Positions 9,105 to 33,633 of a DNA stretch of 64,000 nucleotides are shown in pieces. How positions within the stretch are numbered: position 1 is the first letter of the stretch; each line of letters opens with the position of its first letter. The notes beneath the pieces were generated by a model. It made no database searches, was not told the origin of the DNA, and saw only the letters and a list, made by a program, of their open reading frames with translations. The position numbers and the translations under genes were made by a program. The stretch comes from Blasia pusilla (taxonomy: Eukaryota): the NCBI GenBank assembly GCA_050084515.1, contig CM114271.1, forward strand, positions 23,374,001-23,438,000, given 5' to 3'.

Positions 9105-11816
9105 GGGGGCTGGTATTCTGGGAGGAGAGAGTAAGAGAGAGAGTAAGAGAGGAGAGTCTCTCTAAAAAAAAAAGGGCAGAATCCGCCTCCTTCTTTAAAA
9201 CTTTTTGAAATTTTGAAATTTTTGTTTGCTGTCAAATTCATGAAATCTTTAGAAGAGAGTAGCAAGTGGACCACATTAGGGCCAAAAGTAACCTTCTTTT
9301 TCCTGGCTTGGAAAAATAAGTAGACATCATAAGACCACTACAAACATTCTTTCATCACTCTTCATGTGAGCCCAATTTTCTTCACATTTCCTATCTAAGC
9401 CAGCTCTATAGACAGTCGGGCTGAGGGGTATTATTGTTGGAGGACCATCGGCAGATAATTTGACCAGAAGTAACAATTTCATCTCAATGAAAGGTTCAAA
9501 TAAAGACTCTAACTATGGTCTCAATAGACTCTTATGCCCTTCAAGGTTTAACTTCTCCAAAGATGTGGTTGATATTATGGATTGTTGACTCTTCTTGCAA
9601 AATGCATTAAATATCCCATCCCATCAATACTCATCCATGAGGGGGCTTTAAACAACAGAAAAAATCACTCATCACTAATGGTAGCCGAAGACTTTCATGA
9701 CAACATTGATGATGTTGGCTCATGAATGGGTGCATAAAGTATACCATGGAGTGCTATGCGTTTGAAAACTTGGTTTCACCATTCTCTCAGCCACTGAGAA
9801 ATGTATGCATCAAGAAGAAAATGTGATCAGACTGAGAGGACAATTGAAGCAAAAGGTTGATAGTTGTCAGGAGTAAAGAAGAACTGATGCACCCATGTCC
9901 CTTCATTTAGACCCTAAATGTCGGAATCCGACAGGTTGCAACTCTTGCAACCCGTCGGGATCCGATGGGTTGCACCCATTGCAAGCAAGGACACCACAAG
10001 AAAAGAAGGATCTTGATAAGTGATTCCATTCCACCCTGCAATCCATAAGAATCCGATAGGTTGGGAATCCAACATGAAAATCTGACACGTAGTAGGAATC
10101 CAACACGCCTCTAAAATACCGTGTTAGAGAAGAATGGTGTGACGATAATGGGGGAACCAGGCAAAAGTGAAGAAACCTGCTTGAATGCCTGAAAAGTTGG
10201 ACTAACAGGAAAAGAGTGGGATCACTCAAGCAGCCAACTTGTCAGAATCTGACAAGTTGCCTGAAAGGGGTTTAAAATATTGTGACAAGTTGCAACCCGT
10301 TGGAATCCGACGGGTTGCAAAATAAACAACATCGAGTAGATAGACCAACACAATTGACAAGAACAAAAAAAAATTCATCAAAATTTTACAAAAACCATCA
10401 TGGTTCAAAAACTTCTTGTCCTTTATTACATCCGAGGGAAGCTCAGAAATGTACATTTGATCTAGTCTATGATTTCTTCAGCCTCTTCATCTAAAAATTT
10501 ACTCCTAACTCTCCTAGGTTCTTGTACAAAAGGAATATCTTGGGATACAAGTGGCTCCTCTAGCCGATTGTAGACCGGGACTATAAATGTTGGGGAATTC
10601 GAGAGCCTTGGCCCCTCCCTAGGTACACCATAATGGTCCCATATAACATGATTTGAGTCCTAACCCCTTCCTCGATAGTAAATCTTGTATGCTCTACAAG
10701 GTGACACCCATCCAATATCAATATGTGCTCCGTCCTTGGAAAGCACTAAATCCCAACTCCAAAACACTTCAGTCAAGCTTGGTCCAATAAATCTTTGAAC
10801 TCACTTGTGATCGTCCGATAGCTCTTCCAGAATTACTATTAGCTTTGCCCTCCGGATTTTTGGAATAGTAGGAAGTGACGATGGTGTCTCTATCAATGGT
10901 GGCTCTAGAATTGGAGTTGTTGGCTTTGTAGGAGAGTTGTATACTCCCACTAGCCTCTCGTAATCCGCCTCTACCTCTTTGCAAAGGTCAAAAAGTTATG
11001 GCCTTCCCTCAAGGCAGAGAATGTTCCTAGCACTCTACCATGCGCCTTTGATACTTGCCCTTGATAGGCCCACTAAGTCAAAGACCAAGTCACCCAGCCT
11101 CAAGCAAAGCTCCATGATTGTTTGCATCAAGGCAGGTGACTTCTCCCTTCCTCCAAGTAAGGGGGTCCCTTCCTCCATGAAAATTCCCAGGGGGGAATTG
11201 TAGAGATTATCTAAGCTATACCCATCGGAGCATGGATCCACTAGATCCGGGATCAGGAACACCAGGAAGTTGTGCTCGGGCCTTATAAAGCAGTAGACAA
11301 ATGAGTGGTCCATCTATGAATAAGCAGGTGGAAAATAATGTTAGCAAAGAGAAAAAGCTAGTGGACCGCTGGTCTACTCTCAATATAGTAACACAATGTG
11401 CAACCGGTCGGGATCCAACGGGTTGCTCATTTGGCTAGGCAGAGGAGCAACCTGTCGGAGTCCGACGGGTTGCTTTTCAACCCGTCCTACTAGTCCATAG
11501 TGATTACCAACCCGTCCAAACTTGGCCTATAGGCCTGACAGAACAACAACCTGTCGGAGTCCGACGGGTTGTTTTACAACTCTAAGTGGATTCTTTGGCT
11601 ATGAGCAATCCTTCTAAAGCTGACCCGCCAACAAGTTGCTCATTTTGTTGGACAGAACCTCCACCTGTCGGAGTTTGATGGTTGGCTTACAACTGAATAC
11701 AATTGTTCAGAGTTGAGAAGTTCCTAATATCATAGCAACCCGTCGCTTTCAGAGAGATTGCATCACTCCAAAAACATGCGGAAAAGCAATGCTACTTGCA
11801 ACCCATTGGGTTTCGA
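9105..11816 (+). mobile_element. MULE-MTase element copy C (diverged left end, interrupted by copy B)
   Basis: Begins GGGGGCTGGTATTCTGGGAGGAGAGAGTAAGAG. Contains the subterminal block, the last two cargo-gene exons (minus strand) and a palindrome-rich intron. Confidence 0.8.
10462..11313 (-). pseudogene. Last two exons of amino-MTase-like cargo gene, copy C
   Basis: MDHSFVYCFIRPEHNF..GGREKSPALMQTIMELCLRLGDLVFDLVGLSRASIKGAW*, then a last exon ending VRSKFLDEEAEEIID*. Confidence 0.75.
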
Positions 11817-12825
11817 GGGGGCTGGTATTCTGGCAGGAGAGAGTAAGAGAGGAGAGGAAGAGAAGAGAGTCTCTCTTCAAGAAAAAGGGCCAAATCCGCC
11901 TCCTCTCTTCAAAACTTTTTGACACATTTGAAATTTTTGTTTGCTTTAAAATTCAGGAAATCTTTAGAAGAGAGTATTTAGTGGTCCACATTTGGCCCTA
12001 AAAAAACCTCCTCTTTCCTGGGGGCGAGAAAAAAGGAGACATCATAAGACCACCCTAAACATTTTTCCATCACTCTCCATGTGAGCCTAAGTTTCTTAGC
12101 ATTCCTTGTCTTGGTCAACAAAAAGCAGTGCCCTTGGTATTTTTGTTGGAGGACCACCCAGATGGGTACCTCTCTTTTTGCAGGGATTGTTGCCTGCATC
12201 ATGGCCTCCCCTAAATTGCCCCATAACCAACTTTCGGTTGCAGAATGGTGTCTGCTCAAGACCAACTTTCTGAAATGTGAACAAATCAGATCCTAAGGCT
12301 GAGAAACCGAGAAGCTGCACCCCTCCCAACCCGTAAGAAAGCTCACCATAAGAAAGGAAAGATTTTTAGAAGTGATTTTCTTCCACCCTACACCCACGAC
12401 GATCTAACGGGTTGGGAATCCGAAATGGCAATCCGACAGGTAGTAGGAATCCTACACATCTTAGACAAGAAAAGAAGCCTACAATTGGTTGGACGAATGA
12501 AGGGGAACGAGCCAAAAGTCAAGAAGCCCGCCACAATGCGTCAGAAGTTGGTCTCATTGGGATAGAGTCCGATCACTCAAGCAATCAACCTGTCGGAATC
12601 CGACAGATTGCCTGGAAATGGTTAAAAAGTTGCAGTGGGCAAAAAGCAAAAAGTTGCAACCCGTTGGAATCATACGGGTTGCAGAACTGTAATTCTGAGT
12701 AGCTAAAAGAACACAATCCACAAGTCCAGAATCATATTCCAGCAAACTTTTACAAACACCATTATGGGTTGAAAAAATCTCGTCCTTTATTACCTCCGAA
12801 GGAACCTCGGAAATGTAGATTTCAC

Positions 12826-15800
12826 CTAGTCTATGATTTCTTCAACCTCGTCATCTATAAATTTACTCCTAACTCTCCTCGGTGACAGTACCAAAGGAAT
12901 GTCCTGGGATTCAAGTGGCTCCTTTGGCCGATTGTAGACGGGGATCGAAAAAATGTTGGCGGTCGAGAGCCTTGGCCCCCCTAGGTACACCATAACGGTC
13001 CCATGTAACCTGTCTCGAGTCCCACCGCTTCCTCGGGCAGAGACCTTGTACGCTCGCAATGTGACACCCATCCAATATCAATATCCGCTCCGCCCCGGTA
13101 ATACCATTATGGCAACCGCACAGGTAGAAGGAATCCAACACGCCTCGAGAGAAGAAAAGAAGCCTCACGCCGCCTTTACGAGTTGAGGGAAGGTGCCAAG
13201 GAAGAAGCCCGCCAGATCGCCTCTTAAGTTGGACCAACAGGAAAGGGTCCGATCAGGCAACCTGTCGGAATCGCAGAGTTTCCCGGAGGTGGTAAAAGGG
13301 TGCGATGGTCAAAAGCGAAAAGTTGCAAGCGAGGAGAAACCGGACGGGTTGCAAAGTGGTCATAAAGTGAAAAGTTGCAAGCGAGGAGAAATCGGACGGG
13401 TTGCAAAATAGAAGTCCGTGGAGTACATAGACGATCACATTCGAAAAGACAAAAATGATCAGCAAACATTTACAAGCACCACCATCGTTGAAAAAAATCT
13501 TTTGCTTTATATCATCCGAAAAAGCTCTGAATCGACATTTGATCTATTCTATGAAATCTTTTGCCTCATTATCAAAAAACTCCCTACTCCAAACGCTGTA
13601 GTCAAGCTGGGTCGTTGAGTTCTTTGAACTCACTTGTCATCGTCCGAGAGCTCTTGCAAAATTACTTTCGGCCTTGCCCTCCCGATTTTTGGAATCGTTG
13701 GAAGTGACGATGGAGTCACTACCAACGGTGGGTGGGTGGGAACCGAGCTCGGCCGGTGGAGAGTTGTACACCCCAACAAGCCTTTCATATTCTGCCTTTG
13801 CCTCCTTGCAAAGGTCAAACAGTTCCTGCCTTCCCTCGAGGCAGAGAATGTTCCTGCCACTCTGCCAGGCGCCTTTGATACTTGCCCCTGAAAGTCCCAC
13901 TAAGTCAAACACCAAGTCACCGAGCCTTGAGCAGAGCTCGATGAGCGTTGCATCGTGGTCGGTGCAACTTTTCCTTCCTCCCGAAGTGGGGGTCTTGTCT
14001 TGCATGTAAATTCCGGGGAATTGTACAAACTATCTAAGTTGCACCCATCGAGCATCGATCCACAGGATCCCGGATCTTGAACACCTGGAAATTGTGCTCG
14101 GGCGAACGAAGCGAAGAGCGGGAGTGGTCCATCTCAGTAAATCAACACGTTGGAAACAATGTCGAAACTAAAGAAGTCGGCTTGAGAACATTTTCAATAA
14201 TCGACTTTGGATCAACTTTCGGAGTCGGATGGGTTGTTTTGTCCCGGACCAACCCGCCGCCTTCCGATGGGTTGGTCGTGACTAAAACAACCCGTTGGCT
14301 CCGTTTTTTGTCCGTGAGCAACCCGTCGGAAGCGCGACGGGTTCTTTCGCCTAGAGCAGCCCATGCTCGTTGAGAGCAACCCGTCGCTATCAGGACGGGT
14401 TGCATCCAAAACCAAAATCAACCGGGAAAAACCAAAAGCAAGCGCAACCCGCCGGTTCCGACGGGTTGCGTACACCGCGTTTTCCTGTGTATGTGGGAAA
14501 GATGCAACCCGTCGGAAACCGGCGTGTTGCTCTCACCGAGCACGGGCTGCTCTAAGCCAAAGCAACCGTCGCCTTCCGACGGGTTGCTCACAGACAAAAA
14601 CAACGGAGATATACTTCGAGAGTTGTTTTTGTCCATGAGCCTTATCCGAATTGAGCCTTATCCGAATCTGACTCGTCGCGGATCGGAGTGGATACTCGTT
14701 TTTGATGATCCACGATTGCGCCGTCCTCCACTTTAGCGACCTCTTGACGCACTGGAGGTTGAAGAGCTTGTCCTTGCTCCCTCCAGTCAACACCAAGAAG
14801 CAGCCCCTGTCACTCAGATAGGCGTCTGCAAAGGAGAACAAAAGCGCAATCTGGTCATAAGAGAGCGGCACATTCCACTCAGGTACCTCGTCCAACGGAT
14901 TCTCGCCCCGAAGTCGCAACCCCGAGAGCAGATCGGCGATCAAGAGATCCACCGCAACCTCTTCCACCACTCCATTCACCGTCCAGGCAGCGTGCCCGTT
15001 TCGTTGGAGCTTCCGTCCCAACGTTGTCAATTTTTCTATGGCTGGTGTCGACGCTTGAGAACTGAAGCTCTTCAACTCATCCAATAAAGGAGTGAATTGA
15101 AGGAGGACGCTTGTCCGGGTCGTTGTTTGTCTGTGTCTTCCCAAGGATGATGGACTGTATTCTCCTTGGGACAACCCGGGCACCTCTCGCTTCCGCTTCT
15201 CCCTAGCCTGGGGACGGCTTGTCGGGGTTTCTATGACCTCAGACTCTTGTGGCGTTTTTTTCGCCGAGGACGTGGTCCGACCCTCTCTCCCCGCTCGTCC
15301 GGACGATTCCGCCTCTGGCCTTGAATCTTCAGCCTCTCTTTGGGAAGACTCGGCCTCTGAATTTTTCCCTCCCCTCGCCTTGCCTTTGAGACCCGCTGTG
15401 GATTTGTCTTTGGCTGTGCGGACCTTGGAAGCCAACTCAACTGTCTCGTGGGCCTGCTCTTTTGCATCTCCTTTGAAGAAGTCTCCAGGCTGGACGAAAT
15501 TGGGGATGTCGTCTTTTCCTGAGGCCAGTGCATCATGAAGCACTCGTAAATCCTTATCGGTGATGTCTTCAGGGTCGTTGAAGTCGAGGCAAATGGGGCA
15601 ATTCTCCACCTCCCAATCGGACATGTCTTCGCCCCATCTCCATGTCGTACATGGAGAATGTCTCGCATCCGGCGCGGCCCACAATTTCAAGGCTACCGTA
15701 ATTTTCCCCACGCACTGCATTCTTACTTTGGACAAGGTACGAAGACCATCCGTTGGGCAGCTTTTAGTCGAACAGAATGAGCCGTCTGCTCTTGTCGATC

Positions 15801-18573
15801 TCGCTTCTTCTTCGCTTGATCCCGTTTGTTACCCTCTACTTCTTCTCAAGCTCTGCCTGAGGGAGGACACAAACCTTGAACATGGTCTTGAATCTTGGGT
15901 TTTTGGTTGGCTTGTCCCGGATGTCGTCGAGCCAAACCTCGAAATCTCCAGAACTTTCAAGGTTTGCTTCCGGCGGATGGGCTCTAATCTTCGAGCTCCG
16001 CTTGCGGGCCCAAAGACGGACTTCCCGATTACCCGCAACGCGTCCCATAACGACCATTCGCGTAGCCAGTGCGAGATCACTGGATCGGACACACCCGGAG
16101 GATGGTGTGCCGCCCTCTTCTGGGCCTCTGAGCCCTCGAGACTGATTTTCATCAGTCGTATCCTCCTAAACTCGCTTATCCGGACAATGCAAACCGATGC
16201 ACGCGATCCAGGGACACTTTCTCCCCAATCTGACCATGCGGATCTTCATCCCTTTTCCGCTGGCGCTTGATAATCGCCTTCAGCTCCTTGTAGAACTCCG
16301 GACCAAGTTTGGGGTTGAGAATGCTGATGTATCGCTGCATCTTGCTCGCCGTGTATTTCGTTGCTGCAGATACTGCAGCTTGGATGAATTTGGCGCGCTC
16401 AGACGCAGATACCTTCTCCCTCCGCTCCAGCTCTAGTGCAGCGCTTTTCTTCGCGGCGTGTATCTTTGACCAGCAAAGGATGGTTATGGCTGCATCTTGG
16501 GAAATAAACTTATTTGCCCAAGTTTTCTTTTTAATCTGAGCACCCTTTGCAAGCATCTGATTGACAAGGGTATCGCCCAAGAACCCCGTGTACTCTCCCG
16601 GGTGCGTCGTAAGCACCTTCCTCACCCGATCGCAGTCCTAGATCCAGTGGTGGGTGACATTCCCCTCCGATACAATCTTGCACATCCAAACTCAACCCGT
16701 CAGGAAATTACATGGGTTCCTGCAGCCCGGCCGGACTCCGGACGGTCGCCATGACTCAGGTCGGATTCTAGCAACGAAGCTAAATGATGCAACCCGTCGG
16801 AGTCCGACGGATTGCATTCAGATTTGCTAATGCGTGGTAAGCAAACCGTCGAGTCCGACGGGTTGCTCGACAGGCCGCCTTGTCAAGATGATTTTTGAAG
16901 AATGCAACTCATCGGACTTCCACGAGTTGTTCGAGTGACTGCAGGTTTAGAAGGTTTTTTCCCCAAAGCAACCCGTCGAGTCCGACGGGTTGCTTGCCTC
17001 GAAGGTGTTTTTCCCCAAAGCAACCCGTCGGACTCCGACGGGTTGCTTTGGGGAAAACCCTTCTAAACCTGCAGTCACTCGAACAACTCGTCGGAGTCCG
17101 ACGAGTTGCATTCTTCAAAACATCTCGAAACGGGTTGTCAAGCAACCCGTCGGACTCGACGGTTTGCTTTGGGCCAAAAACTAGTTAAATCTATGGTCAA
17201 TCAAACAACTCGTCGGAGTTTGACGAGTTGTATTCTTAAAAAAACATCCAAAAAAGCGTGCAGTCGAGCAACCCGTCGGAGTCCGACGAGTTGCTTTCGG
17301 AAAAAAATAAACCTAACCCATTCATCAATCGAGCAACTCATCGGAGTCCGACGAGTTGCGTAAGTGTTAAAGATACTCACGTGTTCATGGCATGCATTGC
17401 CATCTCCACCGTCGCCATGTGATGAGGGAATGGGTGAAGGACCACTGCCTTCACGCAGAAATGTGCCTCCAATGAGTTGGGCCGCTCCTGCGCAAACTTG
17501 GTCCACGCCATGAACCTGTGATTTCCATCCCAGATGAAGAAATGCAGATTCCTCATTCAGCTGAATTCGGTGCCCTCAATTTGCCTTCTGAAATCCTGGT
17601 CTCGCATCCTCCAGAATGTGTCGAGCTTTTCCAAGTCCTCCTTGGTAACCAGAGCTTGGGTTCCATGCTCGTCGTAAGGCTGAACAAAGAAGGGAGGAAA
17701 GTTGTCGACGTAGGATGTTGTCGCCGCCGATTGTTTAAGCTTCGCGATGTCCTCGTCGGACTGAATTTCGCGGACGTATTCCATTGTCCACAATCGGCAG
17801 AGTGGAATCCTCGGGGCGTTGTGGCCCTCCATGAGTGCCATCGGCTTTACCACCTGTCAGAACCGGGACAAGATGAATAAGCTACACTGAATTCCCAATG
17901 AATTGCAATTCACATAATTCAAAAAACCCATATCCTCTCTTACCCGCTCGAAAATGGGGTCGGTTTCTTGACCAGCTAACTTGTCTGAGACAGAAGCTGG
18001 CAAATCGACTGGGAACTCGTCGATCTGATAGAGGTCGATGTCCTCCGCCGGGCTTGGAGTCGAGAATGACCGCTCTCCGGCTTCTTCGGCCATGTCCACC
18101 ATCTCCACGCTGGCGGTCCTCATGACCTCGTCGTCATCGATTTCAACTTCTCGCGTTTCCACTATGTTGATTGTGTCCCCGGACTTTGTGGGGGACATTT
18201 CCCGCATCTCAACACTTGTGGTTGGACGGGTTGGGCTATCGTCAATGGCTATCGCTTTTTCCCTCCTCGCTTTAGCCAATTCTGCCCTCCTCACCGACGC
18301 GTCCAAACGCTTCTTTTCTCTCCTTTCGTCGGCGATCCTTTTCTTCAAGGCCTGCGACGTCTCAGCCTCTACGTTCTGTTTATCTAGTGCCTCTTGAACA
18401 CGTCTCGTAAGAAGCACTTTGTTGTGCATCTCCGCTTCCCTTTCCCGCTCCTCGATTTCCTGCTGCCTAATTTCATTCGCCGAACGAGGCCTAGGAGAAG
18501 CTGACGCAAGAGTCCTAATGGACTTCGGAGTGAAGCTCCCGCACTTGTTGGCTTGTGATTTTTTCCTCGTCAT
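12826..18573 (-). pseudogene. Cargo gene: coiled-coil + ParB-like (WDGNHR) domain + helical region + beta-class N4/N6 DNA methyltransferase-like domain, 5 exons (full extent, disrupted)
   Basis: ATG at 18573 (MTRKKSQ; MMRKKTQ in copy D). Introns 17943-17854 and 17380-~16678 sit at the same positions in copy D. HFFIWDGNHRFMAW, with WDGNHR at 17532-17515. VDLLIADLLSG at ~14920-14955, and IELCSRLGDLVFDLVGLSGASIKGAW in ORF 13637-14005. TGG>TGA stop at 17557, several indels, one splice donor mutated GT>AT. Confidence 0.75.
16785..17360. repeat. Palindrome array and nested hairpins in cargo-gene intron 2 (copy B)
   Basis: Perfect 24-bp-arm palindrome at 17009-17057 (TTTTCCCCAAAGCAACCCGTCGGA-C-TCCGACGGGTTGCTTTGGGGAAAA). 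~100-bp inverted arms span 16893-17120. Confidence 0.9.
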
Positions 18574-18863
18574 TTTTTTTCCGGAAATGCCTCCACCTAT
18601 GTCCACGATTTAATCCCTTGATCGTCGCCTTTGCTGATGTCTAGATGGGGAGCTCAAATCGCCTTGATGGGTAGCTCGAATCGTCCCGCGATCGCTCATT
18701 CGAACCGTCTCGCTGTCGTTCGGTCGAACGGTCTCGCTCTCGTTCCCTCCTATCGACTCGCGATGTGTCGCCGTGTGAAATGCCCTTCAGATCGATCACT
18801 GCCGCTGGGAGAGTGAGGAATGAAGATCGCAAAATGAGAAACCGAAATGAGTGATTTCTGCCC

Positions 18864-18871
18864 TATTTATA
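18864..18871 (-). promoter_or_regulatory. Putative TATA box of cargo gene (TATAAATA)
   Basis: Conserved in context in copy D (TATAAAA on minus strand, 41412-41418). Upstream of the cargo ATG. Confidence 0.45.
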
Positions 18872-18954
18872 CTTTTCTAGCCGTTGGGTGACGTTGGGTC
18901 CCGTCGTCCTTTCGACGGCGGCGCGCCGGATGTTACGGAAGTCCGGCGTGAAAA

Positions 18955-19670
18955 ATGGCAACCCGTCGAGTCCGACAGTTGCGCGCTCCGCCATCTCCGG
19001 TACGCCGCCACGTGCGCGAGCAACCCGTCGAGACCGACGGGTTGAGCGCTCCGTCGTCTTTGAAATGAACGCGAGGTACCCACGCAACCCGTCGGAGACC
19101 GACATGTTGCGCGCCTCCGCCATCCTGGGTACGTTGCCACGTGCGCGAGAAACCCGTCGGAGACCGACGGGTTGAGCGCCTCCGTCATCTTCAGAAAAGA
19201 ACGCGAGGTACCCGCGCAACCCGTCGGAGACCGACATGTTACGCGCCTCCGCCGTGTTTGGGACGGGAACGGGACGTATCTTGGGCAATCCGTCGGAGAC
19301 CATTGGGTTGCACGCTTCCCTCATCAAGTGTTAAGAACGAGGGCTTCCCGTGCAAGTTGTCGGAGTCTGGCTGGCTGCACCACAAGGCGATGCCCTTGCG
19401 CCACCCGTTGGAGGGCGACGGGTTGCACGCCTCGCCGTCTTTGGGCAAAAAGGTGAGGCACCCGCGGAACTCGTCAGGAACAGACGGTTTGCACGCCTCC
19501 GGCATCTTCGGGCAAGAACGAGCGGTATCCGAGCAACTCGTCGGAGAGCGACAGGTTGCTCGCTTCGACAATGTTTTGCAGAAGCGTGCAACCCGTCCGA
19601 TGCCGACGGGTTGCAGGCTTCGGTTAGCTCCGGGTAATTTTTGAGTTACCAGGACTCCGACGGGTTCCAA
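18955..19670. repeat. ~60-66-bp tandem minisatellite built on the palindrome, between the two divergent genes (copy B)
   Basis: Recurring GCAACCCGTCGGAGACCGACGGGTTG followed by related spacers (CGCCTCCGCC..CGAGGTACCC). Confidence 0.85.
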
Positions 19671-19823
19671 GTGTGATGCGCAACCCTCTGCTTCCCAAAT
19701 CCGGTGACATATTGCAACAAAATTGAATGTGTTACAGAATTGGATCCATTGTGTTAGACAATGTCACCCACCGAATTCATCTTGTCAATAAAAATCTGTC
19801 AGGAGTATCTGTTTCCTATTCAC

Positions 19824-19831
19824 TATAAATT
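19824..19831 (+). promoter_or_regulatory. Putative TATA box of transposase (TATAAATT)
   Basis: TATTCACTATAAATTAA is identical in copy D (42511-42527). Followed by (ATTCTC)n and an ATG ~60 bp downstream. Confidence 0.5.
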
Positions 19832-19887
19832 AAAAATTCTCATTCTCATTCTCATTCTCAGTCTCCTCCCGTTGGAATCTTCTTGGA

Positions 19888-22800
19888 ATGGATAATTATG
19901 TTAAGCTCACTTGTGGCAGTCATCTGGCGGCCTTTCCTCAATCAGAAATCATTCGACCCCAAGCTCGTAAGTCTTTCATGGTAGTGGATGAAAATTTTCT
20001 GTCTGTTCGATTTGTTCTCCAAATTGGAACCATCTTTGTATCCAAAGATGTTAGGTGGACGGTGCACGGAAGACATAATAGGTGAGATGGTCCAGCCAAG
20101 TGACCTCGCACCGTAAAGTATGGAATCTCCTACCTCTAGCAAATGGTCAATACAGAGTTAACGGCCCGCCCTCGAATTCGTCATTTCCCAAGTAGACGGT
20201 CTAGAATTTCCTAGTGCTCCGAGCTCTACGTTTGCAACTCCAAGCTCTGCAGATCCGGCTTCAACTCCAACTTTGCACGCTCGTAACAATGTTGTTCTTC
20301 CTGAAGAGATTTCGGATGTTATCAACCTCAGTGGATCCGCTTCGGACACCAATCGGGCCCTCTGTCGCCTACTGTTCCTCTTGCAGTATCAGGCAATAGT
20401 TTGCTTTCGTCTCGGCCTTGAAAATGTTCAAGCACATTCTTGTCGACGAGCTGCCGCCCACGTATGATGGTAATTGCATTTTTGAGTTGCCTCCACTTGC
20501 TGCTCTTGCTCAAAAGAAGGATGGAGGACGCATGAAGGGTATGGACAAAAAGTCTGATTGTCATTGATGGTGTAGGCTTCAACGGACTAGTGCTTCAATT
20601 CCAGATGGTCCTTGGATTGTCTCCTACCGCCAATGCGTGGGAGCCTTGGAGTGTAGAAGTCCAGCATGCCCGTATCTAGAGCGCAACGGGCGAGTCAATA
20701 CGTCGCAATTCCCTCCCAAGAATGCAGATACTCCATACGAGGTCGGTGCCACCATACCGCCGGGAGGCCATCGATGTCCTCATTGTCGTCGCATCGCCCT
20801 TCGCGTTGGAGCGTGTCCTGCATACATATTTTTCATTGTCCACGACTTGGGCTCCACGTCAGAGTATACAAGACTGGCAGTCCATGTTGGCTCCCACACT
20901 CATCCTGTGACCGATGCAATTCAAAGACACATCAAGGAGGATGTGGCGAAGAAAGTAGTCGAGGTCTACAAAAACTCTCCTGGTTCAAAGCCCGGAGTGA
21001 TCAAGCTCACAATGGCATCACAAATTTGTGAACAATTGCTTGGAATCCCTGGACAGGGCGAGATTATGGCGGTTGAGGAGAAACAACTCTGGGAGAATCT
21101 CGCATTTCTCGCTGATCGTGAATGCTTCCGGAATTTGCCGCGTCAAATACGAGTTTTGGATGGAAAGACGGCCGAAATGGATGCCATCGCCAGAATCAAG
21201 GCCAACTCCAGATTTCCATTCATTCAGAGATGGCAGTTCATGCGCCAAGGAGGCGAGGGATCGAGGGCCTATGTCTTCAAAATATCAACCACAGGTCCGT
21301 TGAGTGACCTCGATCTAATAGATCAAATGAGGGAAGGGGAAGATCTTTACGGGAGTTGGGTAAGCTTTGATATTTGCTACAGAGTGTTGAATGGATGGTT
21401 GACGATGGGTGCTCACGTTTATGACCATGTGGAGAAGGGACTCAAAACTATATTTTTCTGTGAAGTAAAGGCAGAAGACGTTGGCAGTTTGAAGATGTGC
21501 TGGTTACTCTTATTGGAGGTGGTGAAGGAAAACAAAAGGCCACCTCCGGAAATTTATGGGTTCATGGCAGACAATGCACAACTTGGGTGGATTGCTATCC
21601 GGGAAGTGTTCTCGGGTGGAGAGGTTCAACCGGAGAGGGAAAGGTCGGATGCTTTCCATTGGCAACAGTCTGTGACCCGGTACACCAAATCTTGCATCAA
21701 GGAGAATAAGAGGACAAAGCATGTGACTCTACTCCAACGCTGCAAGGACAGAAAAACCTTGAAGCAGGCCATGGAATGCCAGGAAGAACTTCATGGGTGG
21801 TGGAGGAAGCATGCGATTGAGGGGAAGTACAAAGAGTTGTGCTCTTGGTTGAGTTGGTGGATCAGACGTATGAGACAATGGGGAAACTTCATGTGGCAGG
21901 TGAGTTCACTATTTTGTCTTGTCAAGCTCACGCTGAGAATTTTTTGTAAAGTTGTAGCTCAGGGTGAGAAGCGTGGGAACTATATGGATTTCAAACCCAA
22001 GAAACCAAGCAAGCTGTCGGATGCGACGGGTTGCCCGAGTGTGCAACCCGACGGAAACCGACGGGTTGCATCTAGATGTTTGGTGCAACCGGAGTGTGCA
22101 ACCCGTCGGGACCCGACGGGTCACAGAGTCGTTCATGGGATGCCTCGGCCTTGCAACCCATCCAGTTCCGACGGGTTGCAGTAGGTGGGTTTAAGGTTAC
22201 AACACGTCGGGACCCGACGGGTCGCATAGTCGTTCATGGGATATCTCGGGCCTACAACCCATCTGGTTTCGACAGGTCGCTTATTTCTTTGACTCCTGAG
22301 TTATTTTTGTTCCCTTCTAACATTGCCGTCGTTGCAGGGATTGAACGTTCATGAAAATGCCCTCTGCCCCAACACAAGTGGAGCAGAAAGTGTTCATTCC
22401 TCTTGGAGGTCGTCACAAGCATGCCAACGAATTTCACTTGTGGAGGCATGCCAACAAGACCAGGCAAGAGCAATGCTATAGTTTGCAACATCCCATATCT
22501 TCCTCACAAAAGGCATAACAAAAGGAAAGGGGCGGTCGATCTACGAGCTCTATGTCAAGGCGGCTGTGAGATCTGGTGATGAAAAAATGTATGTCGAAGC
22601 CTTCAACCGGTGCGTAGCTGGAACTCCCCTCGAGCAAGACGTACACATTGGTGGGGATATTTGTGGGCAGATTTCAAGACGTCCCATACAGATGGTGGTA
22701 GAGCAGTCCGAACGAGACTCGTGGAGATCAGATAAGTATCTTGACTTCAGACAGGTGAAGAGGCAGCATCGAGGAACGAATCCGGTGATTGATTTGGATG

Positions 22801-23349
22801 AGGAAATTACACCGCCGAGGTATTCGGGGACCCCGGACCCGTCCCAAATCCGTGATGGAGTTACTCCTCCAAAATCAGTGAATGTTTTATTTCAAAAGCC
22901 CTCCGTTGCTGGAAGTTTGCAACATCCTGTCATTGGGGTGGTTCAACAATATGGGATTCCGGTAATGGAGGTGGATTGCAACCTAAAACGGTGGCATATA
23001 TCTCGGAGCAACCCAGGACGTGGACCCACCTGTAGGGCAGGATCTGATGGCATTAGGAGAGCATGCGGCACTTTCCTAAATAAGAATCTGACAAGGATCG
23101 GACGACCATCGCTGGGTTTTGGGGACTCAAAACCTTTGATCGTTTCACGAGGACGGGGATTAATTGAAGTACTTCTTACGCCCAAATGAATCTTGCGCTT
23201 TCGAAGTCTTATCCGCCGCCATAGGAGCTCCGAGAATACCCCCACGATTTGGCCCATCGCCGCAGGCACGAACTGCACTCAAGACGAAGTGGACAATCTT
23301 ACAAGTGCCGGTTTCAGACTCGTAGACGGGGGAAGTTTGGAGCATGTTC
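19888..23349 (+). pseudogene. Mutator-like (MULE) DDE transposase, copy B (3'-truncated; intron 21900-22337)
   Basis: Cys/His DNA-binding module (CVGALECRSPACPY..CPHC..CPA..HVGSHTHP, GCM/WRKY-like). Catalytic D in VSFD (21369), D in MADNA (21570), DAFHW at the C/DxxH position. After splicing, NTSGAESVHSSW supplies the E (22386), matching the MULE TNNxxESxH pattern. Confidence 0.8.
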
Positions 23350-24113: not shown

Positions 24114-25221
24114 TGTGATACCCACAATTTTGTAATCTTGAAGAATAAATCTTTTTATTCAACGAAGACTCTTGTATATTATGATTTTGATTTTGATTAT
24201 TTATTATTATGAAGAAGAATAAGTGAATCACCAAGTTCCGAAGACAAGGCAGAGAGATGAAGATCAAGGATTTTCCTTAGAGGAGAATCAAAAAAAGAAG
24301 TATTTTCCTTGAAGCTCTTAAGCCCAGCTTAGCAAAGCTTAGCAAAGTCTAACGAAGCTCAAAGCTCTATACACTCAACATGATTGAAGAAGGAAATTTT
24401 GAAAGCTCAACATGATTGAGATTTGAAACGACACATAGTTTAAACAATGAGACTAGGAAAGGGTGCGACCCTTTGTATCAAATTGGTAGTTAGAATAGTT
24501 TTGTACCATGGATTCATAGGGATCGTAGGAAAAGCTAAGTGAACCATAGATCTAGGTAGTTACAGATATTGAAGAGACACCCCTTCATCAAGAACGCCGG
24601 ATCATAGAAACGATCCTACTCGTCAAGAATATTTAAGAAACAGAGAGAAGCTATTATCATCATTCGCTCATGAAGTCCTTATCTTTGAGGAATGGTCCGA
24701 GCAAGAGAGTTGTACCCTCTGAGCTTGTAGATACTTTGAAGTCTTCCAATTCTTGATGGAGTAGTAAAGCATTCATTCATTCATTCTGATGTGCGATGCT
24801 TATGTCTGAATATTTTTTGGGTGCCGAGTGAAGAGTGAATCAGGCGAACCTTTCTCATCAATGGAATAATCAAATATAAAGTTGTATGAAATTTGTTTGA
24901 CAGAGAGTAACCTACCCCGACGGATTGAGTTCCGAAAGTAGGAGAAGCCAGCTTTATTCTTGAGGTCTCTGTGAGGTTCCGAGATGATGAGAGAACAAAT
25001 TGCCTGAACGTCCTTTAAACTCCACTCGAGAGAATTGAAGAAGAAAATATAGGTACTAAGAAGGATCGGAAGCTGATACTGGAATATTACATTTGAATTA
25101 CATAACCAATTACACTTTTACAACATAATCATCACTTTATACTCTCTTTTCATCCAACAATGATCCTCTTGGGGATCGAACTCTACAATTGACTGTAAAT
25201 AAGAAACACTTACACATTACA
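24114..25221 (+). repeat. 5' LTR
   Basis: TG...CA. Nearly identical to 33634-34813 except for length variation in an AAGC/CGAAGC-rich tract. Confidence 0.95.
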
Positions 25222-25238
25222 TATAGTCGAAGACTTTT

Positions 25239-25258
25239 TGGCGCCGCTGCCGGGGATC
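25239..25258 (+). other. Primer binding site complementary to tRNA-Asp 3' end (TGGCGCCGCTGCCGGGGATC)
   Basis: One mismatch to the TGGCGCCGTTGCCGGGGATC PBS known from Athila-type elements. Lies 17 nt downstream of the LTR end. Confidence 0.8.
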
Positions 25259-25713
25259 ATATCCTTGGCTGAGAAGGGAGAGAAAGATCCATGGGGAAGC
25301 ACGGAACGGAGAAAGAAGCTTCGCTCCTAGACAACCCACATTCTAATTCTTACTAAAGACCATCGGCTAGCTCTAGCGACCCCCGTAAGACAATGTATGC
25401 TTGAAGATAACAATACAGTTGCTGCATTGGTGCTAGAGAAGATAGGCCAACTAATTAGAATGGTCAAAGAACCGGTCGCCGAACGGTGCTTCGCCCATGG
25501 ACGATAGTTGTACTTGGTGAAAACCGGTACTTTGTCTATGGGAGAAAACTGGCAGGAAGCGTAGGAGCACCAGGCACCCTCCTGTAGATGTAAAAAGAAT
25601 CAGTAGTTAACCTCCATCCATGGACCCTTACCCTATCGCCACCGTGGGGGTGATCGCGAGTTGCCAAATCCCCCAAGAGGCTTATGGAAGGCTCTCCGCC
25701 CTCTTCGCGAGCA

Positions 25714-28700
25714 ATGAGCCAATCGGGCGAGTAGGCAGAGAGAATAAAGAACCGGCTTGAAACCCCTGGTTTTTGTCTCGAGTCTTCGTCCTCGTCCGAA
25801 GGCGAAGACCAAGAAGAAAGAAAGGGACAAATTTCCCACTACGTCCCCTGCTTGTTCGCAGTCGGACGAAGAGTCGTCCTGGGACCCCTTTGGAGAGTCA
25901 GGGAGCGAGGAGCCGATCAGAGCACCTCGGGCGGCACCCTTACCTCCTCCCTCTCGAGCATCAAGCCCGGGAGCCAGCAAGAGAGCAGTGCCCATGGCCA
26001 ACACTAGAAAAAATTTGCTAAGGTACCCCACCTTTGCTGGAGGCCGACGAGACGATGTGGATAACTTTGTTCTTGAATTCACCCATGTCGCAAGAGCCAA
26101 TGGGGAAGGGGCAGAGGAGGATTTGTTACGAAGTCTTTCCAGGCCTGCTCAAGAAGCGAGCAAGCCAGTGGTACGAAGGTCTCGGAGCAGAAGTCACGGA
26201 AATCTGGAAAAGGGTCTTGGAATCCTTCCTACACGAGTTCCGCGACTTGGAGTTCGAGGACAGGCTTCTTACAAAGCTTCGCGACCTGAAGCGAAGAAAG
26301 AAGGAAACTCTCCGGGAATATACCCAACGGTTCCGGAGCCTTGTGAATAAGCTAGAACACACGACTACCTCTCAATTGGTAGATTGGTTCGTGTCTGGCT
26401 TGTCCAAAGAAATGGATCGGTATTGCCGGAGAGGCCAACGGGATTCCCTAGAGGCAGTCATAGCCTCTGCTGAGGCGTACAAAGCTTCAGAAAAGTCCCG
26501 CCGAACACGAAGACGGCGTCACCAACGAAGAGGGGCGTCGCAGACTAGTGCTTCGTCCGAAGACGAAACGTCCTCCACCGACACGGAGTCCTCTACAGAG
26601 GATTCGTCCTCGGACTTGGAGCAGGAGGTAAAAGCTAAAAGGAAAGGGAAGAGCAGGCGTCATCGCTCCCCCAAGCACCAGACTAAAACCCGACCAAGTA
26701 CCAAGCGTCGTCCTCAGCGGTCGGAAAGTCCGGTAAGAGGGACGGCAAGGAAGGCCGGCAAGTCGGCCATGGAGGAACTCAGTAAACAAATGGCTGAGTT
26801 GAAGGTACATCTGGCGGCCCAAAAGGACCCCAGAAGACGACCCGGGCTGATGAGGCCCAACGTTTGGTGTAGTAGTTGTGGAACCCAGGGGCATACTGTA
26901 CAATAATGCCCTGCGGTGGGTCCAGGAAGAGGCCCCTATTGAAGAAGGATGGTATGAACCAGAACAGTGGGAAGGGTGCTATGCCGTGCAAGCGGTGCCA
27001 CCCCCAAACCCTGGAAGAAGCTGGATCACGCGGTATGTACCTCCGGAATACGGGGAACAGAGACCCCTGAGACAGATTATGGGTGCGGCGGCCTTCACGC
27101 CACCCATCAAGAGAAATTATTGTTATAACTGCGGCGCAGCAGACCACTGGGCCAATAATTGCCCAAACCCGGGTTAAGCGACGGTGGGACTCAATCCCTT
27201 ATGCGGGAACTGCAAGAAGGGCGGGCACACTGCCGTGGAATGCCCGGAGCCTAAGGTCCCACGTTTGTTGGTCAGGTATGTAAATACTCCAGCGGCTCAA
27301 CCAGAGCCCAAGAACGATGTAAATGTACAACTGGTCCGGGTGGAAGAAGTAGTGTCCCCAAGACCAAAGCGAGTCACCATCAGCGAGGAAGACTCGACCC
27401 AAGGGGCCAACGAAGAATCATCAGACTGGCCCAAAGAATTTCAAGAAACAGTGTTGGCGGTCACCACGAGATCAAAGAGTCAGACCGTAGGGACCCCAAA
27501 GGTAAAGAAGGGTGCTTCGTTTTCGCGCGAAGCTCGGGAGCCCAAGAACAAAGCGGTGAACACCTTACGTGCCGGAAAGGCCATCCTCAAAGGCGATGTG
27601 GACCCGGCCTTTGACCGAAGTCATTCGAAATACTTCCATCAGGATGTGGAGGACCAGGTCCGTGCTCAAGTGCGGGAGGCCCAAGAACCAGAGGGGAAAC
27701 AGACCCCAGAAAAGGCAAAGGCCAACCCAAGTACGACAGTCCAAGCCATGGCGACATCACCACTGGTCCTAGAAGCGTACAATTTACTGAGGGACTTGGC
27801 GTCAACCCCGGCCAACATAACCCTGCTGCAGTTGCTAATGGATAACCCAGTATACGGAAAAATCCTGCAGCAGTGGAAAATCAGCCGCAAAAGACCCAGG
27901 AAGGCAGCGAAGCAGCTACCAGTGGTGGACCTGTTCCGTATCAAAGTCGAGGACTTGGGAGCCCCCGAAGTGGAGGTGGAGATTGAGGGCCATACTATTA
28001 AGAAGGTCCCCATTGATTCCGGAAGCGGAATCAATATTATGACAGAGCACACAGCTCGGGCCCTAGGGTACACGGTGTACGAGCCCACAGACAAGTACTT
28101 GCGGTTTGTGGATCAATCCCGGAAGAGACCCCTCGGACAGCTCACGCAAATTCCGACCATGCTCGGGGGGGTGTTGTTTATGTTGGACTACTTAGTCTTA
28201 CAGCCCATGACCGCGACGGGCTATCCTTTGCTCATCGGAAGACCCTGGCTGTATGGCGCGAGAGTGACTACAGATTGGAAAAGGCGACGGTTCACATTCC
28301 AGGCGCCGAATCAGGACTCGAAGCGGCTCATCAAGTTGTCGTGGAAATCTCGACCACCCCAAGGAGAGACGCCACCGACTGACGACGGCTATACGTCAGA
28401 TCAAGACAACACCACCGCTACCGAGTCCTCGTCCAATGTATATTATTTAGAATGTTATGAAATAGATGAGCAGGCAATACCCTCCAAGCCAAGGTCGACT
28501 CGAGAGGAAGAGAAGCTAGGTCATAGCACCTTCCGTTTATCAAAACATGGTTCGGGAGCAGGACTATGTCCATGTCAATATTGCAGATCAAAAAAATCTC
28601 TACGCCTTTCGGCGGATTTGTCTCCTACCACACTTATAAAATATAAAAGACTACTGTTTGAGTATTTGGATGTCTTTGCATACTCTATGGATGAAATGAG

Positions 28701-31356
28701 AGGCATTCCCGCACAATATGGTGAACACCGAATTGATCTTAAAGAAGGCGCGGTCCCGGTGCGAATGCGACAATATCGACTGAACCCAAAGTACTCATTG
28801 TTAGTCAAGGATGAGATCGATCAGCGTCTCGAGGCAGGAATAATCTATCCGGTGTTAAGCAGCGAGTGGGTGTCGCCCATCGTAATTGTGCCTAAAAACA
28901 AACGGGCAAAACCGAGTGTGCCAGGACTATCGGAAATTAAATGCGCCACCTTAAAAGACCACCATCCTCTACCTTTCACCGACAGTATTTTGGATAAAGT
29001 GGCCGGGCACGAGCGTTATACCTTCTTAGACGGGTATTCGGGGTACAACCAGGTATCCATAAGAGAAAAGGATCGTCCCCTCACAACGTTCACGACGGAC
29101 TAGGGAACTTTCGCATATCGCGTAATGCCTTTTGGGTTGTGCAATGCCCTGCCTACTTTCCAACGGATGATGATCTCCATCTTCCAGGAGTATCTTCGGA
29201 AGTTCGTCGAAATCTTTTAGACGATTTTTGTATCTTTAGCACGGAGGCGAACATCTTGAAAAGTTAGAGTTAACACAGACGTCGCCGCAAAAGTGCATTT
29301 GTCCCTTCATCCGAACAAATCCTATATCGCTATGAAACAAGGAATTTTGCTGGGACACCGAGTGTCGGCGCAAGGGAATTGAGGTCGACAAGGCGACAAG
29401 GCCAAGGTGGATATTATCGTCGCATTGGAACCACCCACTAATCTCCGGAATTGAGAGGATTCTTGGGACATGTCAGGTATTATCGACTGTTCATTAAAGA
29501 TCACGCGGTAAAAGCAGGGCGCTCTTACTGCATTACTTAGAAGACCACCGAATGGGAGTGGACACCAACGCGTGCCAAGTGGCATTTGACACCTTAAAAG
29601 ACGATTGCAAAAGGCTCTTGTATTTCCGGTCCCCGATTGGACCAAACCCTTCCACGTGTATGTAGACACATCCTCATTTGCCATTGAGTAGTGCTCAGCC
29701 AATTGGATGAGCACAAACATGATTTTCCAATTTGCTACGCCGGCCGACAACTATCGGCGGCAGAGCAGAAATATACAACCACCGAACGAGAGGCGTTAGG
29801 CATGGTCTTCTCGTGTAAAAAGTTCGACACTATTTATTAGGGTACGAATTTTTCTTTCATGTGGATCATTTTGCACTTTCGGACCTTTAATGGTGAAAGC
29901 CGACTGGGGACGCATTGCACGATGGATCTTGTTGCTACAAGAATTCACATTCGATGTGGTGACCCGTGCGGCAAGGTGCATACCAATGCCGATTTTCTTT
30001 CCCGTTGAGGATGACAAACGCGACCTCACCCAATCATCGATGATACCTTTCCCGATGAAGATCTGTTCGGATAATGAGGAACGGTTGAGCCGATCGTTGT
30101 ATGCGGATATTCTCGCGTTTTCTAATGACTCGCGACTTCGCCCGATGACGGAAGCACGCGCAGTTTTTTACATCGGATAGGCCCTTATGAGCTCTGGTCA
30201 AGGGTCTTATTCAAATTAGGTGCTGATGAAGAGCATCGAAGATGCTTGGAAGCTGAAGAGGTTCCCCAAGTCATCAGAGCTCTGCATATGGCTGATTCCG
30301 GTGGACACTATGCGGTAAAAAATACCGTGAAGAAAATTTTGGCCGCACGATATTGGTGGCCGACTAAGTACAAAGACGAGGTAATTTTATTCGAGTTGTG
30401 ATGCTGTCAAAAAGGTGTCGACCCACGGCGACTCACGCGGTGGCCTTTGGTCCCCATCATGCCCCTAGCTCCTTTTGAAAAATGGGGCATTGACTTCGTA
30501 GGCCCTATCTCCCCGGCCACTCGCCAAACCCGGCGGAAGTATATTCTTATCGCCACGGACTATTGTTCTAAGATGGTTGAAGCAGTAGCCACGCGGAAAG
30601 ATGACAGTGAAATAGTGGCTAAGTTTTTATACGAGATGATTATCACGCGTTATGGCTGTCCGTTGGAACTAGTCAGTGATCGGAGGACGACTTCCGAACC
30701 AGACTATTGAGTCTCTCACTTCCCACTTTCTCATTAAGCATCGGAAAACCACTCCCTACAACCCAAAAGCCAACGGGTTGACGGAAAAATCGAACGGCCT
30801 CATTTGCCGAATATTGAATCGATTAACGGTAACCTATTCCTATGATTGGGACACAAAAATTGCCCCAGCATTATGGGCGTACCGAACAGCTGAGAAGGTG
30901 ACGACAAACTACACCCCGTTCTTCCTGACTTATGGCGTACATCCCTTAACACCTATTCAATGGGCGTTGCCCACTTATCGGGTATTGAGGGCACAAGAAC
31001 GGAAGTCATGCGGACGGTTATCGAACACGTGAATGAGACCCTAGTGGAGTTGGAAGAAGCACGATGCTCGCGTTACGACGGACAGACAGCCCAAGTGCAA
31101 AAGAACGTAAGAAACGTTATAATCGACATCTCCGCCACAATCTATCGATGTTGGCGACTTAGTGATATTGTATGATAACCGGCGACTAAAGTTCCCCGGA
31201 AAATTAAAATTAAATTGGATGGGACCCTACCGGGTATTGGCCATCTATGATAATGGATCCCTCCAATTAGAAACCTTACAGGGAGAATCCCTACCCACAC
31301 GAGTCAATGGAATGCATGTGCGCCGGTATTATGAGCCCGAACCTGAGGATGAGTGA
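25714..31356 (+). pseudogene. gag-pol: gag-pol polyprotein (frameshifted)
   Basis: Gag core (FPGLLKKRASQWY, ETLREYTQRF), three CCHC knuckles, protease PIDSGSGINIM, RT (EWVSPIVIVPK, FLDGYSGYNQV), RNase H (RIARWILLLQEF), integrase (KWGIDFVGP, TTPYNPKANGLTE, WMGPY). Start position approximate. Confidence 0.9.
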
Positions 31357-33594: not shown

Positions 33595-33620
33595 AGTGTT
33601 CGCCGGGGCGGCTCACATTT

Positions 33621-33633
33621 GAGGGAGGGGGTA
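33621..33633 (+). other. Polypurine tract
   Basis: GAGGGAGGGGGTA immediately before the 3' LTR. Confidence 0.85.

Follow-up and report, generated by a model that had tools for sequence, protein, structure and literature searches.

A transposon family with two divergent genes

We analysed a stretch of 64,000 nucleotides from the liverwort Blasia pusilla (contig CM114271.1, positions 23,374,001 to 23,438,000; called the window below and numbered from its first letter), in which a 27-bp palindrome occurs 70 times, always within five copies of one transposon family. The copies were resolved by comparing the window with itself. Each element has two divergent genes, a transposase gene on the plus strand and a second gene, here called the cargo gene, on the minus strand (strands as in the element made up of copies B and D), and no copy in the window has both ends. 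The copies, their terminal inverted repeats (TIRs) and the mapped parts of their genes, including open reading frames (ORFs), are as follows.

4-4285: copy A, inverted relative to copy B and running off the window; its cargo gene lies at 4-2419, plus strand
9098-11816: copy C, partial, abutting copy B
11817-23349: copies B and D, one contiguous element whose left TIR starts at 11817 and which is cut off at 23349 beside a young Gypsy element
38248 to about 46950: copy E, cut at 38248, with an imperfect right inverted repeat
11817-11864, plus strand: left TIR of the B+D element (GGGGGCTGGTATTCTGGCAGGAGAG...); RNA reads of three runs break exactly at 11817 and 11856
46905-46951, minus strand: imperfect right TIR of copy E (score of 48 in a local alignment; the best of 500 shuffles reached 39)
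13633-16676, minus strand: cargo-gene exons of copy B/D; the 5' exons continue at about 17381-18609, giving a gene span of 13633-18609
13633-14084, minus strand: methyltransferase (MTase)-like exon of the cargo gene, next to intron 2 (about 14085-14646)
14536-15828, minus strand: cargo ORF of 431 amino acids (aa), whose homologue-supported part ends near 14647
16045-16167 and 16179-16637, minus strand: cargo exon parts, from a high-scoring segment pair (HSP) with a homologue and from an ORF, respectively
20436-21899, plus strand: main exon of the copy D transposase gene, interrupted by an in-frame stop at 20565-20567 and 39% identical to the orphan proteins P0001 and P0002

The left end sequence of the B+D element recurs at 9105 (plus strand, copy C) and at 4279 (minus strand, copy A). 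Two introns were located by RNA reads, and their splice sites were checked: the transposase intron at 21900-22337 (GT..AG; junction 21895 to 22334, one read of run X19 and three reads of run X21) and cargo intron 1 at about 16677-17380 on the minus strand (junction 16676 to 17380, three reads of run X20). In a DNA sequencing run with the same species label, the family was very abundant, with 69,372 contig pieces matched.

The initial annotation had taken the element for a Mutator-like element (MULE), and this identity is plausible. In the ESM-Atlas, the clusters nearest to the transposase carry PF10551 (scores 0.94-0.95, 178-182 shared features), and nine of its ten best family-assigned matches have a common family or clan. 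Terminal inverted repeats, a MULE feature, are present, although imperfect, and a weak SWIM-type match (PF04434) was found at 46065-46613 (E = 0.0048; 16.8 bits, below the cut-off of 19.6). By eye, likeness to the D, D and E blocks of transposases is seen in WVSFD, YGFMADNA and, in the spliced sequence, NTSGAES. Support from Pfam was not obtained: the scan gave no match at E ≤ 1 for the 538-aa transposase ORF, nor at E ≤ 0.1 for its two relatives.

A discrete palindrome in the non-coding parts of the element

Using a relaxed arm scan (two 12-nt arms, at most three mismatches per arm and five in sum, and a centre of 2-5 nt), we found 70 instances of the palindrome GCAACCCGTCGG-(A-N-T)-CCGACGGGTTGC in the window. 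The centre is 3 nt long in 58 of them, 2 nt in nine, 4 nt in two and 5 nt in one. The 9-mer CAACCCGTC has 69 exact matches on both strands, where 0.44 would be expected, and this count was reached by none of 100 dinucleotide shuffles. When at most three mismatches were allowed, the 27-mer GCAACCCGTCGGA-N-TCCGACGGGTTGC gave 32 instances (0 expected), of which two, at 17020 and 39147, are perfect. Note that the 70 sites do not represent independent events, given the relatedness of the five copies and the tandem nature of the arrays. The scan also gave 29 unpaired half-sites with at most two mismatches, nearly all of which are the better-kept arm of a decayed palindrome; five of the 29 (7370, 7674, 24917, 30770 and 34510) lie outside the copies, each with two mismatches and without a partner arm.

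The positional conservation profile, suggested as a check together with the initial annotation, is symmetric between the arms, with 0.8-1.9 bits at positions 1-12 and 16-27 and peaks at CAAC/GTTG. Position 13 has 1.1 bits, the central base is free (0.07 bits), and the 20-nt flanks on each side do not exceed 0.52 bits. The palindrome is thus a discrete unit with sharp borders and an unconstrained central base. The earlier claim that its arms stay constant is overstated, because their CpG positions (four per palindrome) vary.

All 70 palindromes lie within the approximately 27 kb occupied by the five copies (4-4285, 9098-23349 and 38248 to about 46950), and there are none in the remaining 36.8 kb or so of the window, which include the Gypsy elements and 17 kb around an apyrase gene. 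Within the copies, exons are avoided: 11,913 bp of exon-bearing segments hold no palindrome, compared with 70 in 13,878 bp of other element segments. The exon-bearing segments were drawn by hand from ORFs, homologue HSPs and the two RNA junctions, so small unrecognised introns may sit inside them. Apart from seven isolated sites in the arms, the palindromes form arrays with 6.0-12.5 sites per kb, located in cargo introns 1 and 2, the divergent intergenic spacer and the transposase intron. The dozens of palindromes that the initial annotation had placed in the introns of both genes and in the spacer, and their absence from the exons, the Gypsy elements and the apyrase region, are therefore borne out. 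The arrays and isolated sites, for which no strand is given, are listed below.

1496-1811: cargo intron 2 array of copy A (inverted relative to B), five palindromes and degenerate ones, with an 87-nt inverted duplication
2726-3360: arm of copy A, two isolated palindromes (2726-2752 and 3334-3360) and a half-site at 2656
9947-10318: left arm of copy C, two isolated palindromes (9947-9973, within a 27-bp indel when compared with copies A and B, and 10292-10318)
11400-11746: array of copy C orthologous to that of cargo intron 2, three palindromes and a half-site at 11735; it adjoins the copy B TIR at 11817
12585-12682: left arm of copy B, two isolated palindromes with centre AAT, whose position is kept in copies A and C
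13257-13404: left arm of copy B, degenerate half-sites in a 52-bp tandem duplication that is missing from copy A
14249-14587: cargo intron 2 array of copy B (the left part of the element of D), five palindromes and a half-site at 14576, between the exon of the 431-aa ORF (14647-15828) and the MTase-like exon (13633-14084)
16789-17359: cargo intron 1 array of copy D, eight palindromes and three degenerate ones (16692, 16904 and 17205), centres mostly AGT/ACT, periods 52 and 122 bp
19020-19614: intergenic (promoter) spacer array of copy D between the divergent genes, nine palindromes and a degenerate one at 18958, mostly AGA, periods 65 and 132 bp
22009-22225: transposase-intron array of copy D, five palindromes, within the intron at 21900-22337
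38978-39855: cargo intron 1 array of copy E, nine palindromes and degenerate ones, centres AGT/ACT
41500-42424: intergenic array of copy E, eight palindromes, AGA in 67-bp repeats and ACT near the transposase gene
44167-45082: transposase-intron array of copy E, 11 palindromes, about 600 bp longer than its counterpart in copy D
46772-46798: single palindrome of copy E, about 150 bp inside the right end and the sole one of the 70 at most 500 bp from a mapped terminus

The centre varies by region, as the initial annotation had also noticed, and the preference of each region is the same in copies D and E. Intergenic sites have AGA (five of nine in copy D, four of five in copy E), those of cargo intron 1 have AGT or ACT (five of eight in D, eight of nine in E), and six of the seven isolated arm and end sites have AAT or ATT. 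With an A-N-T centre the middle of the palindrome reads GANTC, as in 27 of the 70 sites; the intergenic AGA variant is without it. Each arm contains CCGAC, which is ACCGAC in the intergenic variant.

Copy E also has a tandem repeat of 2.5 copies with a 21-bp unit in its right subterminal region (46816-46868), and this unit holds CAACCCAACGG, two mismatches from a half-site. Copy C ends in its own palindrome array right at the first base of the copy B TIR (11351-11817), and, judged from this junction, it looks like copy B was inserted into, or next to, the array of copy C, whose remaining part is absent from the window.

An Rfam scan of the whole window gave no family at gathering score, and the exact 27-mer had no match in metagenome contigs. 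In a narrow full-text check of the literature with the 12-mer, no transposon or plant paper was among the matches listed, as judged by titles and the beginnings of abstracts; a search for Mutator-like transposons together with ParB and a methyltransferase gave a single paper, on the genome of a red alga.

Turnover of the arrays and conservation of the core

The palindromes are the conserved cores of tandem arrays with periods of 35, 52-54, 65-67, 75-77 and 122-132 bp (Tandem Repeats Finder). The arrays change in size by whole units, and their unit numbers and spacers are not the same in copies D and E, nor in copies A, B and C; the transposase intron has five palindromes in copy D and 11 in copy E, and a 52-bp duplication and a 32-bp insertion present in copy B are missing from copy A. 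In four of the seven arrays examined, we found inverted duplications of 49-110 nt with 79-87% complementarity (16893-17120, 1486-1745, 14334-14572 and 44459-44591), as in intron 1 of copy D, where a 103-nt segment is duplicated (16893-16995 and 17018-17120). These could form long hairpins in the intron RNA, although long hairpins as a general feature of the arrays were rejected, being present in only four of the seven.

Such turnover suggests a reading in which the palindromes have no function and are recombination- or slippage-prone minisatellite cores, which spread by tandem and fold-back duplication and by gene conversion and are tolerated in non-coding DNA. All arrays are tandem, with unit numbers that differ between copies, and the inverted duplications are what such a process would leave. 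Contigs of the DNA run skip and step back at the arrays, and conservation in that run is lowest in the array bins; the isolated sites of the left arms do not clearly surpass their flanks in conservation (figures below); and absence from exons would be expected of any such insert. What this reading does not account for is the core itself. The spacers of the arrays are unrelated between regions, and their periods differ, yet the same core stands in at least seven contexts; local duplication alone therefore does not explain the spread between regions, and duplication of whole units cannot put a sharp-bordered 27-bp core among so many unrelated spacers.

In addition, the core is better conserved than the spacers between copies D and E. 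When the two copies were compared by BLASTN with the palindromes masked, cargo intron 1 had 26 alignable spacer bases out of 409, the intergenic region none out of 634 and the transposase intron 132 out of 304, whereas the adjoining exon-bearing segments aligned over 1202 of 1202 and 666 of 668 bases with 75-90% identity. Nevertheless, both copies keep 5-11 palindromes in each compared region, with 1.6-3.3 mismatches per 24 nt relative to the consensus. When consensus units of the intergenic arrays were compared between D and E, the core agreed in 26 of 27 columns and the spacer in 26 of 41 (Fisher p = 0.0014). The changes within the palindromes (96 transitions and 59 transversions) bear the mark of methyl-cytosine deamination, with C>T and G>A at CG and CCG positions as the predominant types; no kind of sequence in a methylated transposon is more mutable than this core, and yet it is retained.

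The ratio of observed to expected CpG is 0.93 in the array spacers, 0.76 in the exon-bearing segments of the element and 0.55 in its arms. The higher value in the spacers is suggestive of youth or hypomethylation, but it does not discriminate, because the neighbouring Gypsy element, young as judged by its nearly identical long terminal repeats (LTRs, 97-98%) and a CpG ratio of 0.97, has a similarly high value.

Further candidates for the origin and upkeep of the palindrome were rejected. Maintenance of a hairpin by correction from arm to arm was not seen: changes in both arms (15, of which nine are symmetric) are not in excess of the 10.6 expected, beside about 125 changes in one arm. Nor was there a sign of a mobile mini-element with target-site duplications: flanks of 5, 8 or 9 nt are not identical at any of the 70 sites, and direct repeats shorter than these are at permutation level. 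Both results also count against the minisatellite reading. Helical phasing of the site spacing gave Rayleigh p values of 0.001-0.002 at 10-10.5 bp and 0.049 at 11 bp, which we do not accept as evidence because the 51 distances derive from tandem repeats and are not independent. Taken together, we consider functionless minisatellite cores unlikely, although less so than the other rival readings.

The transposase gene and the position of the sites

The transposase genes of both D and E are defective. In copy D, the in-frame stop in the main exon is followed, after splicing, by another at 22479-22481, and copy E lacks at 43374-43386 a segment of 541 bp that matches 20687-21227 of copy D and corresponds to residues of about 224-409 of P0001. 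A search of 5.8 billion clusters gave only two relatives, with 38-39% identity and without Pfam domains, and an alignment of the transposase against metagenome contigs gave 144 pattern matches and no confirmed relative. At the N-terminus, a set of cysteine and histidine residues (C23, C29, C34, C70, H72, C73, C83, H106, H110 and H112) is invariant in the window and the two relatives.

The initial annotation had proposed that the palindromes are dimeric protein-binding sites, with a GCM/WRKY-type domain of the transposase as one candidate. The general idea of a dimeric site fits the sharp symmetric borders, the fixed spacing in 58 of the 70 sites and the retention of the core despite the divergence of the spacers. 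A zinc-finger N-terminus of the transposase might bind the sites to form a transposition complex or for autoregulation. The conserved Cys/His pattern would suit such binding, an array in the promoter spacer would permit autoregulation, and one palindrome does lie about 150 bp from the right end. Motifs of this kind are known: in En/Spm, TnpA binds a motif of 12 bp, some copies of which form inverted pairs. However, only that one palindrome of the 70 is within 500 bp of a mapped element end, the three mapped left ends have their nearest palindromes 768, 842 and 919 bp inward, and most sites, located in introns and the central spacer, are at a distance of 2.5-7 kb from the ends, which argues against the classical role of a subterminal transposase site.

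A different sequence may be the common end signal. Each of the three RNA runs, whose species label is the same, contains reads that share only the 40-bp TIR piece 11817-11856 with the window and have other sequence on both sides, with the same foreign flanks in every run, which suggests a transcribed locus with another element or fragment having the same end. Furthermore, the AlphaFold model of the transposase ORF (three-row alignment), with a pLDDT of 41, is too poor to support the proposed WRKY/GCM-type fold of the N-terminus. We therefore regard transposase binding as the role of the palindromes as unlikely.

The arrays might instead be enhancer or promoter modules, bound by host transcription factors, that drive the two divergent genes in a given tissue or condition. 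The arrays of highest density are in the divergent spacer and in those introns that lie close to the 5' ends of the two genes, typical positions of enhancers, and the CCGAC or ACCGAC in the arms matches the core of the DRE/CRT element bound by AP2/ERF factors. On the other hand, conservation spans the whole 12-13-nt arm, with its peak at CAAC/GTTG outside CCGAC, and is longer than typical sites of plant factors. Arrays are also found in a 3'-proximal cargo intron, and sites in the arms. No palindrome is near the apyrase gene (the sole host gene in the window), and the three RNA runs show very little expression of the family. A host-factor role thus appears quite unlikely.

The cargo gene and its methylase-like exon

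In a search of 1.84 billion representatives, the 431-aa exon of the cargo gene had only four relatives, all without Pfam domains. In the MTase-like exon of copy A, a match to PF01555 (beta-class N6/N4 DNA methylases) is restricted to the AdoMet-binding end, covering profile positions 165-217 of 221 (E = 0.0025; 18.2 bits, against a curated cut-off of 26.7), while the exon of copy B gave no PF01555 match at E ≤ 0.5. Against the Protein Data Bank (PDB), the exon gave a weak match to M.RsrI (E = 0.036) and the cargo profile no match at E ≤ 10, and a search for longer relatives of the exon found none.

Methylases of the beta class have the catalytic motif (D/N/S)PP(Y/F/W) and the AdoMet motif FxGxG. 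In the alignments, inspected by eye, the presumed catalytic motif IV of the cargo protein reads DLLS in the window copy and DLPT, DLPK or DIPT in its sole relatives, without the aromatic residue, and the presumed AdoMet motif I is DLVGLSGAS, with VGLSG as its glycine-rich part. Because of the residues at the catalytic position, it is doubtful that the cargo protein is a working methylase.

Domain scans were run on ORFs of at least 70 aa (at E ≤ 1 or E ≤ 0.01) and on frame-segments of at least 28 aa from the two 3' cargo arms (at E ≤ 0.5). The ParB domain (PF02195) was not matched in any ORF or frame-segment of the copies, nor in the four cargo relatives. The initial annotation had seen in the cargo a ParB-MTase protein, for which the palindromes would be parS-like loading sites or a methylation target. 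Neither part survives well: although the weak AdoMet-end matches, the GANTC at the centre of 27 sites (the CcrM-type target) and the four CpGs of the motif could be read in its favour, the absence of a detectable ParB domain, a PF01555 score under the cut-off, the degenerate catalytic and glycine motifs, relatives without Pfam domains and an intergenic variant that lacks GANTC make this reading very improbable. As to the CpGs, liverworts use prokaryote-type N4-cytosine methylases at CG sites in sperm, according to bioRxiv 10.1101/2021.02.12.428880.

Neighbouring sequences

About 0.8 kb past the truncated end of copy D lies the Gypsy-type LTR retrotransposon mentioned above (24114-34817), with LTRs at 24114-25226 and 33634-34817 and a gag match at 26022-26906. 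Older Gypsy fragments lie beside copies A and E (5720-6805, with RNase H and integrase, and 36117-37952). The apyrase ORF (53603-55819; GDA1/CD39) is uninterrupted over 738 aa and is 71% identical to a Marchantia polymorpha protein and 68% to two Riccia proteins. These identities point to a complex-thalloid liverwort other than M. polymorpha as the host. Perfect (GA)n microsatellites are at 50399-50472 (37 units) and 61137-61239 (51.5 units).

A possible self-recognition system

Our tentative preference is for a reading in which the palindromes are arrays of dimer-binding sites, by which an element-encoded protein finds its own family and acts on the chromatin or transcription of that family. 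We regard this as possible, because the anatomy of the arrays matches, feature for feature, the cis side of the self-recognition system of VANDAL21, a MULE of Arabidopsis. The 27-bp palindrome would be a cis-acting recognition site of the element itself, whose two 12-13-bp half-sites at fixed spacing would suit a protein dimer. Dense sites (6-12 per kb) would be kept as the cores of fast-evolving tandem repeats that fill every large non-coding segment, and, as we propose, exons would lack the motif because a 27-bp insert or repeat is intolerable there. An element-encoded protein would bind the arrays, and the high density of sites would target it to copies of its own family. The first candidate for the binder is the orphan cargo protein, and the second is the putative zinc-finger N-terminus of the transposase. 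Binding may then act on the chromatin or transcription of the element, for example by opposing silencing based on DNA methylation. Protein binding itself, the identity of the binder and the effect on silencing are what we infer here; the distribution of the sites, the discrete nature of the unit, the organisation in tandem arrays and introns, and the better conservation of the core relative to the spacers were observed directly.

Several observations weigh against such a function. On the protein side, the VANC-type domains DUF1985 and DUF287 were not matched in 186 ORF or frame-segment queries over the five copies (74 + 52 + 60, with some overlap), the domain scans did not identify a DNA-binding domain in either element protein, and both structure models are too poor (pLDDT 41 for the transposase, and 44 for the cargo relative P0005 from a five-row alignment). 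The window copies are degenerate, with in-frame stops and a deletion, and the family is barely expressed, with 59-70 reads in each of the three RNA runs. In run X21, four reads join the palindrome on opposite strands at loose ends at 17020 (17020-17046) and 17268 (17268-17294) and carry flanks found nowhere in the window; the palindrome therefore exists in at least one other transcribed context.

Conservation of the sites is likewise less clear-cut outside the comparison of D and E. When the depth of the DNA run was summed in 30 bins, the four array bins were the lowest (summed contig depth 256-1252, against 1343-74281 in the other 26), so the arrays, taken whole, are the part of the family that is conserved least or assembled worst. 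For the isolated left-arm sites, the core matches at 46 of 54 positions between B and C, against 391 of 546 in the surroundings, a slight advantage at most, and at 49 of 54 between B and A, against 505 of 544, in which case it is not better kept. Concerted evolution or homogenisation of the tandem arrays could also mimic conservation of the core, inflating the comparison of consensus units.

A more specific version of the self-recognition reading starts from the cargo protein. It might derive from a prokaryote-type N6/N4 DNA methylase that lost its catalytic motifs and became a dimeric reader of the CpG-rich palindrome, a second, independently evolved self-recognition system of a plant transposon. 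Loaded onto the dense arrays in the introns and promoter of the element, it would protect the family from silencing by methylation or mark it differently, perhaps in connection with the N4-cytosine methylation of liverwort sperm. We consider this version improbable.

Sequence-specific anti-silencing by transposons is known in detail from one system, VANC in the VANDAL elements of Arabidopsis, and the liverwort element combines a VANC-like cis-architecture with a different type of motif, a VANC gene not being found. If binding is real, self-targeting would have evolved in transposons more than once, and early in the history of land plants. The 27-bp site, found in the 64-kb window in element copies only, could then serve with its protein as a tool, and an orphan family with four detectable relatives would gain a function. 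If it is not, the arrays are still a clear example of palindromic cores driving repeat turnover in transposon introns.

Comparison with known systems

Several known systems have one or more of these features. The bacterial REP/BIME and Rickettsia palindromic elements are likewise short GC-rich palindromes in many copies, with sharp borders and unrelated flanks. The palindromes described here differ from them in forming tandem arrays, in belonging to one transposon family within the window, and in being without target duplications and a Y1-type transposase. The parS sites of ParB systems are palindromes of similar size in several copies near the gene of the binder (here only a proposed one), but they are few and bacterial, whereas dozens of sites in tandem arrays are found here in a eukaryotic transposon in which a ParB domain was not detected. 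Subterminal motifs of cut-and-paste transposons, among them the 12-bp motif bound by TnpA in En/Spm and the repeats found in Ac and Hermes, occupy a few hundred bp at each end. They resemble the palindromes in being short, element-specific and present in many copies, partly as inverted pairs, and in being bound by an element protein, which is proposed here. The En/Spm-type motifs are confined to those subterminal few hundred bp, in contrast to the 69 of 70 sites here that are more than 500 bp from a mapped end.

The closest resemblance is to VANDAL21. According to Hosaka et al. 2017 (PMC5735166), VANC21 binds arrays of the 9-bp motif YAGTATTAY and acts against silencing, and the motifs are in tandem repeats that gain and lose units between copies, with their density giving specificity; the removal of DNA methylation upon VANC21 binding is described there and by Sasaki et al. 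2023 (PMC10398659). Both elements are MULEs (plausibly so in the liverwort) with a transposase and one or more accessory genes. In both, a short motif occurs in intron, intergenic and terminal non-coding DNA and is missing from exons (70 sites against none in 11,913 bp here). In both, the motifs are the cores of tandem repeats whose unit number varies between related copies, and local density rather than single sites marks the element.

The differences are in the motif, the protein and the host. The VANDAL21 motif is 9 bp, asymmetric and in a single orientation, while the present one is a 27-bp palindrome of inverted 12-13-nt half-sites. VANDAL21 encodes a VANC protein, and the accessory gene here, with no match to DUF1985 or DUF287 in the queries described above, is an orphan with degenerate methylase-like motifs. 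Binding and anti-silencing are experimental results for VANC21 and are proposed by analogy for the present element, whose host is a liverwort rather than a flowering plant. Motif arrays in the non-coding DNA of a MULE are thus of a known kind, and what is new here, on a narrow check of the literature, is the long palindrome, the orphan methylase-like cargo gene in place of a VANC gene, and the liverwort host.

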